Notes: a model not told the origin generated them from the letters alone. A stretch of 5,121 bases of DNA from Candidatus Woesearchaeota archaeon (GCA_964468425.1 CAYXSZ010000023.1:1-5121), one strand, 5' to 3'. Numbered from the stretch's first letter, positions 2 to 5,121 are shown. Numbers and translations are program-made.

Positions 2-328
2 ATAACATCAATGATATCTCTTCTTGCCGTATTGTTCTTTGTTTTGCCAGAACAAGTTTCGGTTCAACTGTTTGTATATCCCAAGCAAGCGTACATTTCT
101 CAGCAGGTTTCCATACAAGGAAATATCGCGATAGACGCCAATCCCGCGAGCGGTTCTGTTAGATTGATAATTTCTGGTCCTGTGAGTAAAACTGAAGTTG
201 TACATCTAACTAATGGAAGGTTCAAGTACACTTATACTCCGATGAGCCCGGGAGACTACAAAGTCAAGATTATTTACGTTTATAAAGGTAGAGAGTATAC
301 AGCAGAGGATCGATTTAAGGTGCAATGA
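2..328 (+). CDS. Hypothetical secreted or membrane-anchored protein with a hydrophobic N-terminal segment and one Ig-like beta-sandwich domain. Probably 5'-partial; an alternative start is the ATG at 11.
   Basis: The frame is open to the left edge (ITS precedes M at 11). The hydrophobic stretch SLLAVLFFVLP has no basic n-region if translation starts at 11, so an upstream start is likely. The remaining ~85 aa show alternating beta-strand patterns and a G-x-F-x-Y-T-Y-T-P-x(3)-G-D-Y-K-V-K-I motif typical of Ig-like, CARDB or Big-type domains. The TGA stop overlaps the next ATG (ATGA, 325-328). Confidence 0.6.
   Translation: MTSMISLLAVLFFVLPEQVSVQLFVYPKQAYISQQVSIQGNIAIDANPASGSVRLIISGPVSKTEVVHLTNGRFKYTYTPMSPGDYKVKIIYVYKGREYTAEDRFKVQ
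317..322 (+). promoter_or_regulatory. Shine-Dalgarno-like AAGGTG for ORF2
   Basis: It matches part of GGAGGUGA. It sits 2 nt before the ATG at 325, or about 4 nt if aligned on the GGAGG core. Confidence 0.35.
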
Positions 329-1053
329 AGCGATCCATTTCTTGGATAGAGTTTCTAATTACGTTAGGAATATTTATTATGGTAATTCTTTGGTTTTTTC
401 AAAGTTTTTTGAATTTTTCAAAGACTCTTCGCTTTCAGTTAAATGAGTTCGAAAATGTTCAAAAGGCTATTGACATTGCAATGTATCTTTTATCGTTCGA
501 TGATCTGCATGCAACAAACTACGATGCCATTTCAAAAGTTATTCAAAGTAACTACAACTTCGCATTATTTAATTACAAAGAAAAACCTTTTGTTATTTTC
601 TTAAAGCCATACTCGAAGCCATCCTGTAGCGACTGCGTATATTTTTTCTATAACACTTCAAATTCGTGCTACGAATTTTACGAGAGCGCTAGCTTAAACT
701 ACACCACGAACATAGAAGTTATAATATTCTCTAAAAAGTACCCTTCGATCGCAAAAATAGGAAATCCTAACATAGTGTGCTACGATTTCCTTAATGTCTC
801 TATAGCCAAACTAGGAAGTGTAAGAACATTCAAGTATTGTGAAATAAACTTGTACAAGAATACGGGAGTGCTATTATGTGATATAGAGGATATTATCATC
901 GTTGACAAGTATAGAAGTCTGTTGAATTTGCTCTTGGGAAATTCTTATACATTTTCAGAAAAAGGGGCAAACTTTACAAGTCCTACAGAGACCCTTACAT
1001 TTTTCAAACTCGGAAATAATTCCATAAATTTCATAACGCTAAACGTCAAATAA
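325..1053 (+). CDS. Hypothetical extracellular protein with a type IV pilin-like (class III signal peptide-like) N-terminus. The globular part is Cys- and sequon-rich, and I do not recognise its family.
   Basis: 242-aa ORF. The N-terminus MKRSISWIEFLITLGIFIMVILWFF is a short basic leader followed by a ~20-aa hydrophobic helix, and a predicted amphipathic helix comes next. The rest is beta-rich with 6 Cys and 6 N-x-S/T sequons (NFS, NTS, NYT, NVS, NFT, NNS). AAGGTG (317-322) sits just upstream and the start overlaps the upstream stop. Confidence 0.7.
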   Translation: MKRSISWIEFLITLGIFIMVILWFFQSFLNFSKTLRFQLNEFENVQKAIDIAMYLLSFDDLHATNYDAISKVIQSNYNFALFNYKEKPFVIFLKPYSKPSCSDCVYFFYNTSNSCYEFYESASLNYTTNIEVIIFSKKYPSIAKIGNPNIVCYDFLNVSIAKLGSVRTFKYCEINLYKNTGVLLCDIEDIIIVDKYRSLLNLLLGNSYTFSEKGANFTSPTETLTFFKLGNNSINFITLNVK

Positions 1054-1087: not shown

Positions 1088-1162
1088 GGGCCCGTAGCTC
1101 AGCCTGGTTAGAGCGGCGGGCTTTTAACCCGCAGGTCGCGGGTTCGAATCCCGCCGGGCCCG
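1088..1162 (+). tRNA. tRNA-Lys (anticodon UUU), 75 nt, with no intron and no encoded CCA
   Basis: Hand-folded cloverleaf. Acceptor GGGCCCG/CGGGCCC; U8 A9; D-stem GCTC/GAGC with D-loop AGCCTGGTTA (GG present). Anticodon stem GCGGG/CCCGC with loop CT-TTT-AA. Variable loop AGGTC; T-stem GCGGG/CCCGC with loop TTCGAAT; discriminator G1162, followed by CTT. Confidence 0.95.
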
Positions 1163-1175
1163 CTTAAATGCTTTG

Positions 1176-1213
1176 GTTTAAAAATCTAAGCAGAATGGAA
1201 ATTCTTTTTAAAC
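1176..1213. repeat. Perfect 9-bp inverted repeat GTTTAAAAA (1176-1184) / TTTTTAAAC (1205-1213) with a 20-nt spacer
   Basis: Read directly from the sequence. The right arm is the putative S19e TATA box. The left arm is the same box in the opposite orientation, just 3' of the tRNA. Confidence 0.8.
1205..1212 (+). promoter_or_regulatory. Putative TATA box (TTTTTAAA) for S19e
   Basis: The A/T box ends 21 nt before the ATG at 1234. No Shine-Dalgarno-like purine run lies in between. The same 9-mer TTTTTAAAC precedes pfdB. Confidence 0.5.
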
Positions 1214-1233
1214 ATTTTCGCAAAAGCTATTCT

Positions 1234-1746
1234 ATGCCAACCGCATACGATGTTCCGGGGCAAATTCTTGTAGAACGCTTAGCTAGAAAACTCTTTGAGG
1301 AATACAATAATCATGTTAAACCACCAAAGTGGGCTTTTTTTGTAAAGACTGGTCCGCACAAGGAAAGACCTCCTGACGATCCGGCGGACAAGGCGTACAA
1401 CGGAAGTCCCGGATGGTGGTACTACAGAGCAGCCTCGATTCTCAGGCAGGTCTATCTAAACGGTCCCATAGGAGTTTCCAGGCTTCGAACAAGATATGGA
1501 GGAATTCGAAAGAGAGGATACGAACCTGGGAGATTTCAAAAGGGGTACGCAAAAATCATTCGAACTATTTTACAACAATTGGAGGAAGCCGGATTAGTTA
1601 AAAAGGTCGAAGATGGAAAAAGAAAAGGAAGAGTGGTTACGGAAAAGGGAAGAAGCTTGATAGATAAAGTTGCCACTGAGATCTACAAAGAGCTCAGAAA
1701 GGAAAGGGAAAGTGCGGTTCAATACGCCTCCCAGCTAATTAAATAA
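1234..1746 (+). CDS. rps19e: 30S ribosomal protein S19e (eS19)
   Basis: MPTAYDVPGQILVERLARKL...VKPPKWAFFVKTGPHKERPP...WWYYRAASILRQVYLNGPIGVSRLRTRYGG...RGYEPGRFQKG...IIRTILQQLEEAGLV...GRVVTEKGRSLIDKVA matches the conserved S19e pattern along its whole length. The start was moved from the ORF-track ATG at 1168 to the ATG at 1234, where family conservation begins. Confidence 0.9.
   Translation: MPTAYDVPGQILVERLARKLFEEYNNHVKPPKWAFFVKTGPHKERPPDDPADKAYNGSPGWWYYRAASILRQVYLNGPIGVSRLRTRYGGIRKRGYEPGRFQKGYAKIIRTILQQLEEAGLVKKVEDGKRKGRVVTEKGRSLIDKVATEIYKELRKERESAVQYASQLIK
1739..1746 (+). promoter_or_regulatory. Putative TATA box (TTAAATAA) for the L37Ae operon, overlapping the S19e stop codon
   Basis: The spacing to the ATG at 1768 is 21 nt, the same as the S19e and SepF boxes. 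No SD is present. Confidence 0.4.
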
Positions 1747-1767: not shown

Positions 1768-1989
1768 ATGCCCTCCCATACCAAGAAGCTTGGACCTGCC
1801 GCTCGTTTTGGGGTACGTTACGGAAGGAGTATAAGAGAAAAAGTGGCAGAAATAGAATCGCTTTATAAAAACAAAATGTTAAAATGTCCGTTTTGCAGAT
1901 ATGAAGCTGTAAAAAGAGTCGCCTACGGAATCTGGAGGTGCAAGAAGTGTGGAAAAACATTTGCAGGAAAAGCCTACACACCATGGTAG
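1768..1989 (+). CDS. rpl37ae: 50S ribosomal protein L37Ae (eL43), zinc-ribbon type
   Basis: The sequence shows TKKLGPAARFGVRYG, the zinc ribbon CPFC...CKKC, AVKRVAYGIWRCKKCGKTFAGKAYTP, and the typical ~73-aa length. Confidence 0.9.
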   Translation: MPSHTKKLGPAARFGVRYGRSIREKVAEIESLYKNKMLKCPFCRYEAVKRVAYGIWRCKKCGKTFAGKAYTPW

Positions 1990-2123
1990 AGTATCTGTGT
2001 ATTCTCTGCAAAAGAAAAGTTTCTCATGATGTAATCAAAAAAAATATTAAATGTCCGTTCTGTGGTGGCAAAATACTCGTGAAGGTTCGTCCTCCAATCA
2101 CTAAGCTAGTTAAGGCAAGATAG
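1983..2123 (+). CDS. rpoP: DNA-directed RNA polymerase subunit P (Rpo12/RpoP, Rpb12 homologue), 46 aa
   Basis: MVEYLCILCKRKV...IKCPFCGGKILVKVRPP...VKAR is a CxxC...CxxC zinc ribbon with the conserved C-P-x-C-G-x-K-I-L-x-K-x-R-P motif. The ATG at 1983 overlaps the L37Ae stop by 7 nt. The L37Ae-RpoP gene order is conserved in archaea. Confidence 0.85.
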   Translation: MVEYLCILCKRKVSHDVIKKNIKCPFCGGKILVKVRPPITKLVKAR

Positions 2124-2324
2124 ATGTTTGAAGTCGTTATAAAAGTAGATAAAATCTTTGCAGAAGCTATTTCCTTTTTGACGGCCTCCGAAAAAATCGA
2201 GATTAAAGGAGACAAAATCCGTATCAAACACAAAGAAGTTTCAAAGCTTAGAGCAAACACCAACCTGATTCTTAGATGTCTAGGCATCCACCAAAAACTA
2301 AAGGAGTTTATAAACGATGAATGA
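2124..2324 (+). CDS. pcc1: Probable KEOPS subunit Pcc1-like protein, a minimal 66-aa form
   Basis: The ATG directly abuts the rpoP stop (TAGATG). The pattern is beta (FEVVIKVD), helix (IFAEAISFL), beta hairpin (EKIEIKGDKIRIKHK), then a C-terminal helix SKLRANTNLILRCLGI. That helix resembles the Pcc1 signature (...ALRAxxNSxLRxl...) as I recall it. Position downstream of rpoP is typical. The assignment is from memory and is not verified by a search. Confidence 0.5.
   Translation: MFEVVIKVDKIFAEAISFLTASEKIEIKGDKIRIKHKEVSKLRANTNLILRCLGIHQKLKEFINDE
2302..2306 (+). promoter_or_regulatory. Shine-Dalgarno-like AGGAG for the operon-internal ZPR1-type gene
   Basis: AAGGAG lies 10 nt upstream of the ATG at 2317 and is complementary to the conserved CCUCC at the 16S 3' end. 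Confidence 0.45.
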
Positions 2325-2844
2325 TGTAATTTGCCCGTTTTGCGGAAAGAAAAAGCTGAAGCTTAACGAGCTGCTTTATGAGTTGCCCGTAGTTGGAAGA
2401 GCATACATATATTCGTATGTTTGTGAAGAATGTGGTTTTGTTAAGAGAGATGTGCAGCTAATAGACGTAAAGGAGCCAAGAAGATTTATATTCACAGTTG
2501 AGACCCCAAAAGATCTCTATACAAAGATAGTTCGAGCACCAACAGGAAAAATAACGCTCAAAGAGGTTGGAGTAGAAATAATTCCTGGTATTATCGCTGA
2601 AATGTTTATTACGAATGTAGAAGGACTCATTCTAAGAGTTCTAGACATTCTCGAAACGGCTCAGAGATTTCAAGAGCAAGAAAAAAACGAAGAAGGATTG
2701 AAAAAAATTAGTGAAATCAGAAAATATTTAAATCTAGTTTTGGACGGAAAGCAAAAGCTCACAATAGTTATTGAAGACGAAGCTGGAAATTCAGCTATAC
2801 TAAGCGAAAAAGCAAAGGTAGAAAAGATTATACCTCCTCAGTAG
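2317..2844 (+). CDS. ZPR1-type zinc-finger protein (archaeal ZPR1 homologue, C4 Zn finger plus ZPR1 beta-helical domain)
   Basis: CPFCG...x26...CEECG zinc finger, EPRRFIFTVETPKDLYTKIVRAPTGKITLKEVGVEIIPG, ITNVEGLILRVLDILE, and LTIVIEDEAGNSAIL (the family motif DPxGNS). GGAG at 2303-2306 lies 10 nt before the ATG. There is an 8-nt overlap with the upstream gene. Confidence 0.85.
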   Translation: MNDVICPFCGKKKLKLNELLYELPVVGRAYIYSYVCEECGFVKRDVQLIDVKEPRRFIFTVETPKDLYTKIVRAPTGKITLKEVGVEIIPGIIAEMFITNVEGLILRVLDILETAQRFQEQEKNEEGLKKISEIRKYLNLVLDGKQKLTIVIEDEAGNSAILSEKAKVEKIIPPQ

Positions 2845-3662: not shown

Positions 3663-5121
3663 TTATTTGTGCATCCAGATGAAGAGTTCGTTTTCTCGCT
3701 TGACAAATCCGTATCTAACAAAGTGCACGATCTCTCCATCTTTAACTTCGTTTATGTAACTTTCCCCAATTCCAGAAATAACTCCTTCCGGCTTCCATAC
3801 TTTCACAGATGTTTTATAATCGTTTGGAACCCACTGAACAATCTTAGCTCCTAGTTTTTTAGCAGTTTCCAAGGATGCGTCAATGAAACGCGCGACACAA
3901 TGATCTTCACTCCTTTCCAGAACCTCTATGTTAAATCCCTCCATTAAACGAAGATAACGATTTTTACTATCAGATCTTTCGATATAAACTACGTTGTCCT
4001 TTAGACAAAACTCTCTCTCACCTAAATCAACTTCTGGATGATTCTTAACCTTTAAAGTCATTTTAGGAAGATTTTCTATAATAATTTTTATTGGATTTTC
4101 AATGAAGAAAAACCTCTTCGCTTTATTATTATAAATTTCTCTGTTATATCTGTAAATCTTGTCCCAAGACACTACTATGTCAGAAGCTGTCACTCCAAGT
4201 TCTTCTATGTACTTTTTAATAGCGTTAGGGTGAATGCCTCTTCTTCGAAGCCCACATAGAGTATGAACGAACGGATCGCACCAACCAGATAATTTTCCTT
4301 CTTCAATTAATTTTCGAATTTCTGATTTGTGCGGAACCTTCAAAGCTCCAAAGCTAAGGACAACAGGCTCTTTCCATCCAAAATATTCATAAATATACTT
4401 TTGTTTAATAGTGTTTACTTCGTGCTCCTTCATTCTAAAAATATGAGTGATTCCTAGAAGGTAATCGTCGATTGCACAAGCGAAATTGTATGTGGGCCAG
4501 ACAGTGTATTTCGAACCCGTCCTCGGATGAGGATATTTTTCTGTATCGACGATTCTAAAAGCGATCCAGTCGCGAACGGATGGATTTGGATGATCCATTT
4601 CAGTTTTTATCCTAAGAACAGCTTCTCCTTCGTCAAATTCGCCTTCGAGCATTTTCTCGAAGAGCTCGAGATTTGTTTCAACGGATTGTTCTCTGTGCTC
4701 GCAAGGAATTCCCGTTTTTCTATTCTTACATATTTTTTCAGGTGAGCAAAGATCGACGTACGCATATCCACTTTCAATTAACTTTCTGGCATAATCGTAA
4801 TAAATTTCTAATCTTTCTGATTGAATTACAATTTCATCGGGTTTATCCTGAATCAACCAACAGACATCTTCAACAAACTTTTCATAAGCTTCTGGTAAAG
4901 GTTTCTTTCGTTTAGGATCTGTATCATCAATTCTAAGAATAAACTTTCCCTCATACATTTTAGCGTAGATGTAGTTTATTAAAATTGGTCTGGCGTGTCC
5001 AATGTGTAAATAACCAGTAGGTGCGGGTGCAAAGCGCGTAATTACCTTCCCTTTTTCAGCATTCTTCAATGTAGGAAGTCCTCTCCTTTGCTCCTTGGAT
5101 CTCTCTTCTAAAAGCTCCGGG
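3663..5121 (-). CDS. gltX: Glutamyl-tRNA synthetase, archaeal type (class I), 5'-partial because the N-terminus lies beyond the right edge
   Basis: RFAPAPTGYLHIGHAR (HIGH motif), ILRIDDTDP, NPSVRDW, HPRTG, WPTYNFACAIDD, ITHIFRMKEH, GLRRRGI, and RFFFIENP...IVQW...FVRYGFV. The frame stays open from 5069 to 5120 (PELLEERSKEQRRGLPT), so the ORF-track start at 5069 is a TTG inside the gene. Confidence 0.92.
   Translation of the reverse strand, partial: PELLEERSKEQRRGLPTLKNAEKGKVITRFAPAPTGYLHIGHARPILINYIYAKMYEGKFILRIDDTDPKRKKPLPEAYEKFVEDVCWLIQDKPDEIVIQSERLEIYYDYARKLIESGYAYVDLCSPEKICKNRKTGIPCEHREQSVETNLELFEKMLEGEFDEGEAVLRIKTEMDHPNPSVRDWIAFRIVDTEKYPHPRTGSKYTVWPTYNFACAIDDYLLGITHIFRMKEHEVNTIKQKYIYEYFGWKEPVVLSFGALKVPHKSEIRKLIEEGKLSGWCDPFVHTLCGLRRRGIHPNAIKKYIEELGVTASDIVVSWDKIYRYNREIYNNKAKRFFFIENPIKIIIENLPKMTLKVKNHPEVDLGEREFCLKDNVVYIERSDSKNRYLRLMEGFNIEVLERSEDHCVARFIDASLETAKKLGAKIVQWVPNDYKTSVKVWKPEGVISGIGESYINEVKDGEIVHFVRYGFVKRENELFIWMHK

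Follow-up and report, generated by a model that had tools for sequence, protein, structure and literature searches.

A probable pilin-like subunit encoded next to a split assembly platform in Nanoarchaeota

Introduction

What is the function of a small membrane-anchored protein encoded among housekeeping genes of a symbiotic archaeon? This question is raised by a 5,121-nucleotide stretch of DNA deposited under Candidatus Woesearchaeota archaeon (GCA_964468425.1 CAYXSZ010000023.1:1-5121), hereafter the window, and by the open reading frame (ORF) 325..1053 located near its start. For Nanoarchaeota and the other DPANN archaea, which depend on attachment to a host cell, little is known of the molecules which establish the contact. 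In fact, the 2016 census of archaeal type IV pili could not identify cognate pilins or a prepilin peptidase in nanoarchaea despite the presence of secretion ATPases (PMC4858521), and our own literature search for a described nanoarchaeal pilin found none. A preliminary description of the window, made from the sequence alone, had presented the product of ORF 325..1053 as an orphan pilin-like secreted protein with a bacterial-style Glu at +5. The follow-up analysis reported here leads us to consider that the protein is probably a dedicated pilin- or pseudopilin-like filament subunit, belonging to a Nanoarchaeota-specific, non-archaellar, Epd/Tad-like module with a split platform and an ATPase supplied in trans.

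The N-terminus of the pilin-like protein

The pilin-like ORF (325..1053, +) extends from an ATG start to a TAA stop and encodes 242 aa of an unnamed, Nanoarchaeota-restricted family, its product beginning MKRSISWIEFLITLGIFIMVILWFF. Since an in-frame stop lies 3 codons 5' of the ATG, the leader cannot exceed 4 residues. These residues, M-K-R-S (325..336, +; positions -4 to -1), form a putative class III leader with a basic residue at -2 and a small one at -1, and cleavage after KRS would place Glu9 (nt 349-351, GAG) at +5. A hydrophobic segment follows from +1 to +21, ISWIEFLITLGIFIMVILWFF (337..399, +), containing Trp+3 (343-345) and Glu+5 (349-351), both invariant in the family; residues 3-32 are the sole segment of the product with a 19-residue Kyte-Doolittle mean above 1.6. 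Sequence and hydropathy therefore agree with the layout first described, that is, a short basic leader, about 20 hydrophobic residues and a Glu at +5 if the cut is made after KRS.

The product contains exactly 6 Cys (residues 101, 104, 115, 152, 172 and 185) and exactly 6 N-x-S/T sequons (N30, 110, 125, 157, 216 and 231), against an expectation of 3.5 +/- 1.6 sequons in composition-preserving shuffles. Every family member has an excess of sequons, with 4-11 observed vs 1.6-4.5 expected. Both counts had been given correctly in the preliminary description, but not the assignment of every sequon to the beta region, as N30 sits in the helix and only the other 5 in the beta domain.

Distribution of the family and conservation of the motif

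A search of 5.8 billion proteins returned three close relatives of the 242-aa protein, a profile search returned 17, and 1.84 billion cluster representatives, scanned exhaustively with HMMER, yielded only 16 clusters at E <= 0.001. The named members, all annotated as "hypothetical protein", come from Nanopusillus, Nanopusillaceae and DPANN metagenome-assembled genomes, while genome scans located homologues in Nanoarchaeota MC-1, Ca. Nanopusillus, Nanopusillaceae and Ca. Nanoclepta minutus, as well as in Nanobdella aerobiophila MJ1, a cultured strain whose genome is complete (L016 11263..11946; AP019769.1, complement of about 366,371-367,054; product beginning MKSQSWIEVLLT). The window DNA itself matches metagenome contigs from hydrothermal vents. 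The source organism had been supposed to be a reduced, possibly symbiotic archaeon, and its relatives do place it in a reduced symbiont lineage, the Nanoarchaeota. No match to the protein was obtained in Pfam, NCBIfam or PDB (nothing below E 0.1 in the PDB profile sequence search), and when the full protein and seven N-terminal fragments were compared with Pfam and NCBIfam at E <= 10 only noise appeared, for example DUF5411 (E 0.014), which does not reach its cut-off. No hidden Markov model (HMM) of these two collections identified the protein as an ordinary enzyme, in line with the preliminary proposal.

The family alignment and its N-terminal logo comprise 27 full-length members, to which the following counts refer. 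Homologues 19-53% identical to the window protein keep the N-terminal motif nearly unchanged while the remainder diverges, so the N-terminal features are more than chance; the mean pairwise identity is 0.73 over residues 5-17 and 0.28 over residues 18-242. The consensus reads M-[K/R]1-3-[S/G/A]↓[I/V/Q]-S-W-I-E-F-L-I-T (the arrow marks the putative cleavage site), continued by about 20 hydrophobic residues. In 21 members the leader is 3 aa long, five have a leader of 4 aa and one has a leader of 5 aa. Position -2 is always K or R (27/27) and position -1 is S in 12, G in 8, A in 5, D in 1 and N in 1, being small (S/G/A) in 25/27. After the site, +1 is I, V, Q or A (Gln in 4/27, Phe in none), +2 is S in 22/27, +4 is I in 25/27 and +6 is F in 24/27, with Trp+3 and Glu+5 each present in all 27. 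The homologues thus conserve the very N-terminus on which the first description had been built. An invariant start of the predicted N-terminal helix, combined with a divergent head, is the pattern shown by type IV pilin-like proteins. A six-frame search of all fetched loci (~150 kb) for genes with the W-I-E-F-L-I motif recovered family members only, and no paralogous pilins.

The leader is thus of the class III kind, with K/R at -2 in all 27 members, G/A (S being tolerated) at -1 in 25 of them and a length of 3-5 aa. As judged from hydropathy and from AlphaFold2, about 20 hydrophobic residues follow the putative cleavage site and open a long helix that carries a beta-rich domain. In archaea, signal peptidase III sites are marked by a basic residue at -2 (PMC3387779), and leaders as short as 3-4 residues are cleaved by PibD (PMC4187195). 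Moreover, position +5 is acidic in the substrates of EppA, "similar to most bacterial type IV pili" (PMC4187195), and because such archaeal pilins carry it, Glu+5 is not exclusively bacterial. The term "bacterial-style" was in this sense misleading. The EppA-dependent systems also use a two-gene platform (bioRxiv 10.64898/2026.04.22.720090).

Predicted structure

AlphaFold2 was run twice, with an alignment of 17 sequences (pLDDT 74) and with one of 27 (mean pLDDT 89.7, pTM 0.75). The second model has helices over residues 3-56 and 66-77, and strands from 82 to 241; in the earlier one the N-terminal helix covers residues 7-56. The predicted continuous N-terminal alpha-helix of residues 3-56 (331..492, +; block pLDDT 79-96) would span the membrane with its first half and be amphipathic in its second half, and the predicted all-beta C-terminal domain of residues 82-241 (568..1047, +) carries 5 N-glycosylation sequons. 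Within this domain, Cys152 (778-780) and Cys172 (838-840) are invariant in the family, and most members retain the CxxC at 101/104.

The helix-then-beta layout proposed from the sequence is thus reproduced by the model, which predicts with high confidence an N-terminal helix of 54 residues and, after it, a domain made entirely of beta strands, but the match to a solved pilin or pseudopilin fold that was also looked for did not appear. Foldseek against PDB gave jelly-roll-like matches only, all of them insignificant (TNF/C1q/CBM35; E >= 2.5e-3, TM <= 0.36). The architecture expected of a pilin is present in the predicted model, with fold-level homology to known pilins not demonstrated.

The split platform and the conserved gene order

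At the start of the window, ORF 2..328 (+) is the 3' end of a platform C-half gene that runs off the window start, encoding the last transmembrane helix and a C-terminal Ig-like domain (Pfam Filamin E 8.5e-6, Big_3_5 E 1.2e-4). Its stop overlaps the start of the pilin-like gene (ATGA, 325-328). The upstream gene is complete on L003, a related contig, where it encodes 390 aa with a T2SSF domain (PF00482, E 8e-20) and a C-terminal Big_3_5, and the product of ORF 2..328 is 52% identical over 99 aa to residues 292-390 of this protein. The same contig has a second T2SSF gene, of 296 aa and divergent from the first. On the NCBIfam ArlJ/FlaJ profile (555 positions) the 296-aa protein covers 27-248 and the 390-aa protein 271-543, and a single FlaJ/TadC-type platform is hence split between these genes, the former encoding its N-half and the latter its C-half. 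The Ig-like (Filamin/Big_3_5) domain of the C-half we infer to be extracellular.

The order platform N-half (-), platform C-half with the Ig-like domain (+) and pilin-like gene (+) was constant wherever the flank sufficed (L003, L006-L011, L013, L014, L015 and L016), in loci from Nanopusillaceae, Nanoclepta, Nanobdella aerobiophila and marine vent Nanoarchaeota, and in all those with enough flank the start of the pilin-like gene overlaps or abuts the preceding platform stop. The arrangement is held even in members 19-25% identical to the window protein, despite differing housekeeping flanks. The supposed orphan status of the gene was consequently an artefact of the window edge, since the upstream T2SSF gene is translationally coupled to it by the ATGA overlap and the linkage is found in all loci examined.

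Moreover, contig L013 carries a separate full-length ArlJ-like T2SSF protein of 543 aa (15786..17417, -; 315 bits, E 1e-93, aligned over 24-543 of the 555 positions), whereas the split halves reach 58-83 bits against ArlJ models whose cut-offs are 400-570 bits, and match UpsF, BasF and GspF too. The split platform is therefore a second, non-archaellar system, and these genomes carry two distinct platforms. As regards the motor, Makarova et al. 2016 (PMC4858521) reported secretion ATPases of clades 2 and 4 in N. equitans and Nst1. A 336-aa protein of L013 with a weak T2SSE mark was rejected as a generic AAA/wHTH ATPase and not a secretion ATPase.

Several other genes were observed around the module. 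In Nanopusillaceae, Nanoclepta and Nanobdella loci, a protein of ~200 aa, N-terminally anchored, containing Cys and unassigned to any family, is encoded tail-to-tail with the platform N-half gene (L010 7350..7949; L014 2749..3348; L016 8507..9142; L007 6306..6968; L009 7364..7954); it is absent from the marine-type loci L003 and L006 and from L013, has, in contrast to the pilin-like family, no conserved N-terminal motif, and may be a fourth component of the module. Directly 5' of the module in L013 (1405..5284, +), three secreted or anchored beta-rich proteins of 324, 187 and 790 aa, with many sequons, C-terminal anchors in two of them and no Pfam match, are candidate adhesin or S-layer-like partners. 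At ~3 kb from the module, a protein of ~1080-1155 aa with no Pfam match stands beside Glycos_transf_4 and polysaccharide-synthesis genes (L010 3586..6837, -; L011 3598..6840, -; L016 3899..7366, -) and may be an S-layer or surface glycoprotein. Finally, the Nanoclepta-like contig L011 contains three tandem NTP_transf_2/Polbeta and HEPN pairs (17107..19243, +), resembling MNT-HEPN toxin-antitoxin systems.

Proposed mechanism and alternative explanations

If the protein is such a subunit, it would be inserted N-in/C-out through its hydrophobic helix, the 3-5-residue basic leader being removed at the cytoplasmic face by a putative class III signal peptidase, or else tolerated uncleaved. The split FlaJ/TadC-like platform, powered by a VirB11-family ATPase encoded elsewhere, would then extract subunits from the membrane, and these would be stacked through their N-terminal helices, Glu+5 neutralising the N-terminus of the subunit next to it, a role it also has in pilins of the bacterial and EppA types. 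The fast-evolving beta domain, stabilised by disulfides and N-glycosylated, would face outward and is likely to be where the protein meets the host or the S-layer. Within the module, the protein could be either the major pilus subunit or a short pseudopilus or tip component. For an obligate ectosymbiont, host attachment by a head with these predicted properties (glycosylated, fast-evolving and disulfide-bonded) is a plausible role. A bolder version, which we consider distinctly doubtful, is that a minimal-leader pilin (M-K/R-S), uncleaved or cut by an unrelated enzyme, is what Nanoarchaeota polymerise into a type IV filament on a split platform with an external Ig-like collar, and that it is this filament which touches or pierces the host envelope where symbiont and host meet.

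A number of results weigh against the filament-subunit interpretation. The FlaFind pattern that Szabo et al. 2007 are said to have defined is [KR][GA][ALIFQMVED][ILMSTAV][TSA]; by inspection, the family does not fit it in its strict form, owing to Trp+3 in 27/27 members and to Ser-1 in the window protein, and position -1 is even D or N in 2/27. None of the HMMs for pilin N-termini (Class_IIIsignal, N_methyl/TIGR02532, TadE, archaellin) matched, fragments at E <= 10 included. In detail, PF04021 Class_IIIsignal/DUF361 (QxSxExxxL) was not matched by the full protein at E <= 0.1 or by fragments at E <= 10, the bacterial prepilin domain PF07963/TIGR02532 (G↓FxxxE) was absent from the Pfam and NCBIfam results, TadE/TadF (PF07811) was found neither in the full protein nor in fragments, and Pfam gave no archaellin, ArlF or ArlG match to the 242-aa protein. 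Foldseek against PDB, run with two models, retrieved no pilin and no archaellin. Furthermore, neither a T2SSE ATPase nor an A24 peptidase is encoded within 10 kb in any locus (L006-L016), and no filament built of this protein has been observed. A24 prepilin peptidase was likewise missing from N. equitans and Nst1, the two nanoarchaeal genomes then surveyed (Makarova et al. 2016, PMC4858521), and because of this the cleavage of the leader is unproven. The pilin-like proposal of the preliminary description is accordingly sustained by the conserved N-terminus, the helix-beta model and the lack of any enzyme HMM, but not by a pilin HMM or a match to a solved pilin.

A different role for the protein would be that of a non-polymerising bitopic accessory subunit which accompanies the split platform and works in the manner of PilN/PilO, GspL/GspM or a stator or collar piece, whose conserved N-terminal peptide docks on the platform or ATPase and whose beta domain binds the Ig-like domain of the platform or the S-layer. 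The strict 1:1 coupling of the gene with the platform C-half, with its Ig-like domain inferred to be extracellular, would suit such a partner, as would the absence of a known peptidase in nanoarchaea and of any pilin HMM or fold match; in addition, the protein is large for a major pilin and a second helix (66-77) precedes its beta domain. Nevertheless, the motif is no cytoplasmic peptide, as its start lies only 3-5 residues from Met1 and it leads directly into the membrane helix, with a buried invariant Glu at the pilin position +5, a basic -2 and a small -1. The periplasmic domain of PilN/O and GspL/M has a ferredoxin-like alpha/beta fold, from which the predicted all-beta C-terminal domain differs, and no Pfam match of the 242-aa protein to PilN, PilO, GspL or GspM was obtained. 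An accessory role is on balance rather unlikely.

An archaellar role for the locus is considerably harder to sustain. It would have the split T2SSF pair act as the nanoarchaeal ArlJ and the 242-aa protein as a divergent ArlF/ArlG- or archaellin-like part, in agreement with the NCBI annotation of the Nanobdella C-half as FlaJ and with ArlJ models being the best NCBIfam matches of both halves. Nanopusillus, Nanoclepta and Nanobdella are, moreover, archaellated with non-traditional arl clusters (PMC10117864, PMC11104419), and only ArlBHIJ has been recognised in Nanobdella (bioRxiv 10.1101/2023.10.27.564410). Yet the identification of the split platform with ArlJ was rejected because contig L013 encodes, besides the split pair (58-83 bits), a full-length ArlJ of its own (315 bits), the halves remaining far under the ArlJ cut-offs; the product has no archaellin, ArlF or ArlG signature in Pfam, and archaellins are without the acidic +5 (PMC4187195), all of which makes this explanation very improbable. 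It would be stranger still if the protein were an ordinary Sec-inserted, signal-anchored glycoprotein or adhesin whose adjacency to the platform is coincidental. The Nanobdella genome has been reported with a Sec system only, and the flanks are housekeeping genes, but mere coincidence sits badly with the start/stop overlap with the platform gene and with an order conserved down to 19% identity under changing flanks, and an invariant W+3/E+5 inside the anchor is unexpected for a plain signal anchor.

Significance

As a filament subunit, the family is a concrete candidate for the nanoarchaeal pilin missing in the 2016 census, being un-annotated, restricted to the phylum, operonically tied to a second, non-archaellar platform and missed by the standard predictors. 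A study of Nanobdella surface proteins reported that the structures predicted for several unannotated genes resemble archaellins and that filaments of two thicknesses occur, and contains no description of the present family or of the split platform (bioRxiv 10.1101/2023.10.27.564410). What is new here is a class III motif that departs from the canonical one (leader of 3-5 aa, Ser prevailing at -1, invariant Trp+3/Glu+5) together with a platform C-half bearing an Ig-like domain. The kind of system is already known, and no major surprise is to be expected unless processing proves to be peptidase-independent; should it be true that no A24 enzyme cleaves the leader, the concept of the minimal type IV filament machinery would change. 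The presence of the gene in the cultured Nanobdella aerobiophila MJ1, whose genome is complete, makes processing, localisation and function directly testable.

Other genes of the window

The window continues 3' of ORF 325..1053 with tRNA-Lys(UUU), S19e, L37Ae, an RpoP-like gene, a 66-aa ORF, a ZPR1-like gene, SepF, prefoldin beta and glutamyl-tRNA synthetase (GluRS). The tRNA-Lys(UUU) gene (1088..1163) lies 34 nt 3' of the stop of the pilin-like gene, and nothing beyond it was found in the promoter/terminator and Rfam scans. The S19e ORF (1168..1746, +) opens mechanically at 1168, while gene callers and the Pfam match indicate a start at 1234. The ATG (1983) of the RpoP-like Zn-ribbon gene (1983..2123, +), assigned by a weak, sub-threshold match, overlaps the stop (1987-1989) of L37Ae (1768..1989, +), which suggests translational coupling within a ribosomal/RNA polymerase cluster. 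Between the RpoP-like and ZPR1-like genes, the 66-aa ORF (2124..2324, +) is conserved in the related contigs L001, L004 and L005, overlaps the ZPR1-like start with its end and gives only noise in Pfam. The ZPR1-like (+) and SepF (-) genes are convergent, with 3' ends overlapping by 17 nt (2828..2844). The GluRS gene (3663..5121, -) runs off the window end, and its listed TTG start at 5069 is not genuine, since the frame is open to 5121.

Comparison with known systems

By eye, the family resembles the bacterial type IVa pilins and the pseudopilins of the type II secretion system (G↓FTLIE) in its hydrophobic +1, small hydroxyl residue at +2, Ile+4 and Glu+5, as well as in the ~20 hydrophobic residues, the long alpha1 helix and the disulfide-bonded Cys of the head. 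It differs from them in giving no TIGR02532/N_methyl match, in never having Phe at +1, in having Gly at -1 in only 8/27 members and in its archaeal basic -2. The bacterial Tad/Flp system is similar in having two single-domain T2SSF platform proteins (TadB/TadC), and its TadE/TadF subunits are also of ~150-250 aa with a beta-rich domain. The processing motif of these Tad pseudopilins is G↓xxxxE[F/Y], and some members of the present family fit it exactly (RG↓ISWIEF). Nevertheless, the family has no PF07811 match, an archaeal-type basic -2, a leader of 3-5 aa and an archaeal lineage, and no TadV-like peptidase, CpaF-like ATPase or secretin is present in the nanoarchaeal locus.

Among archaea, two-gene platforms are typical of system 1 (Epd) and of the DPANN subsystem 4A (Sivabalasarma & Albers 2026, bioRxiv 10.64898/2026.04.22.720090). 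Archaeal type IV filament (TFF) subsystem 4A, found in some DPANN/Nanoarchaeota, shares with the present loci a minimal cluster of two platform genes and a pilin, with accessory genes 3' of the platform gene, but it is defined with an adjacent ATPase and with the pilins arCOG11238/arCOG06117, whereas the present loci have no ATPase within 10 kb. The Epd pili of Methanococcus maripaludis (archaeal TFF system 1) differ in that the present family has no DUF361/Class_IIIsignal match, mostly Ile/Val at +1, mostly Ser at -1 and an invariant Trp+3; in that the present subunit has a beta domain of ~160 aa while the main Epd pilin is without a globular domain; and in that no 9-transmembrane peptidase of the EppA type has been reported in nanoarchaea, whose platform C-half has in turn an Ig-like domain. 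Both systems, however, have a two-gene platform (bioRxiv 10.64898/2026.04.22.720090) and an acidic +5 followed by an aromatic residue (PMC4187195); the Nanopusillus/Nanobdella branch of the family even shares the Gln+1 of Epd pilins (KS↓QSWIE), and in Epd, too, the ATPase is not necessarily encoded beside the pilin genes (PMC4187195; bioRxiv 10.64898/2026.04.22.720090).

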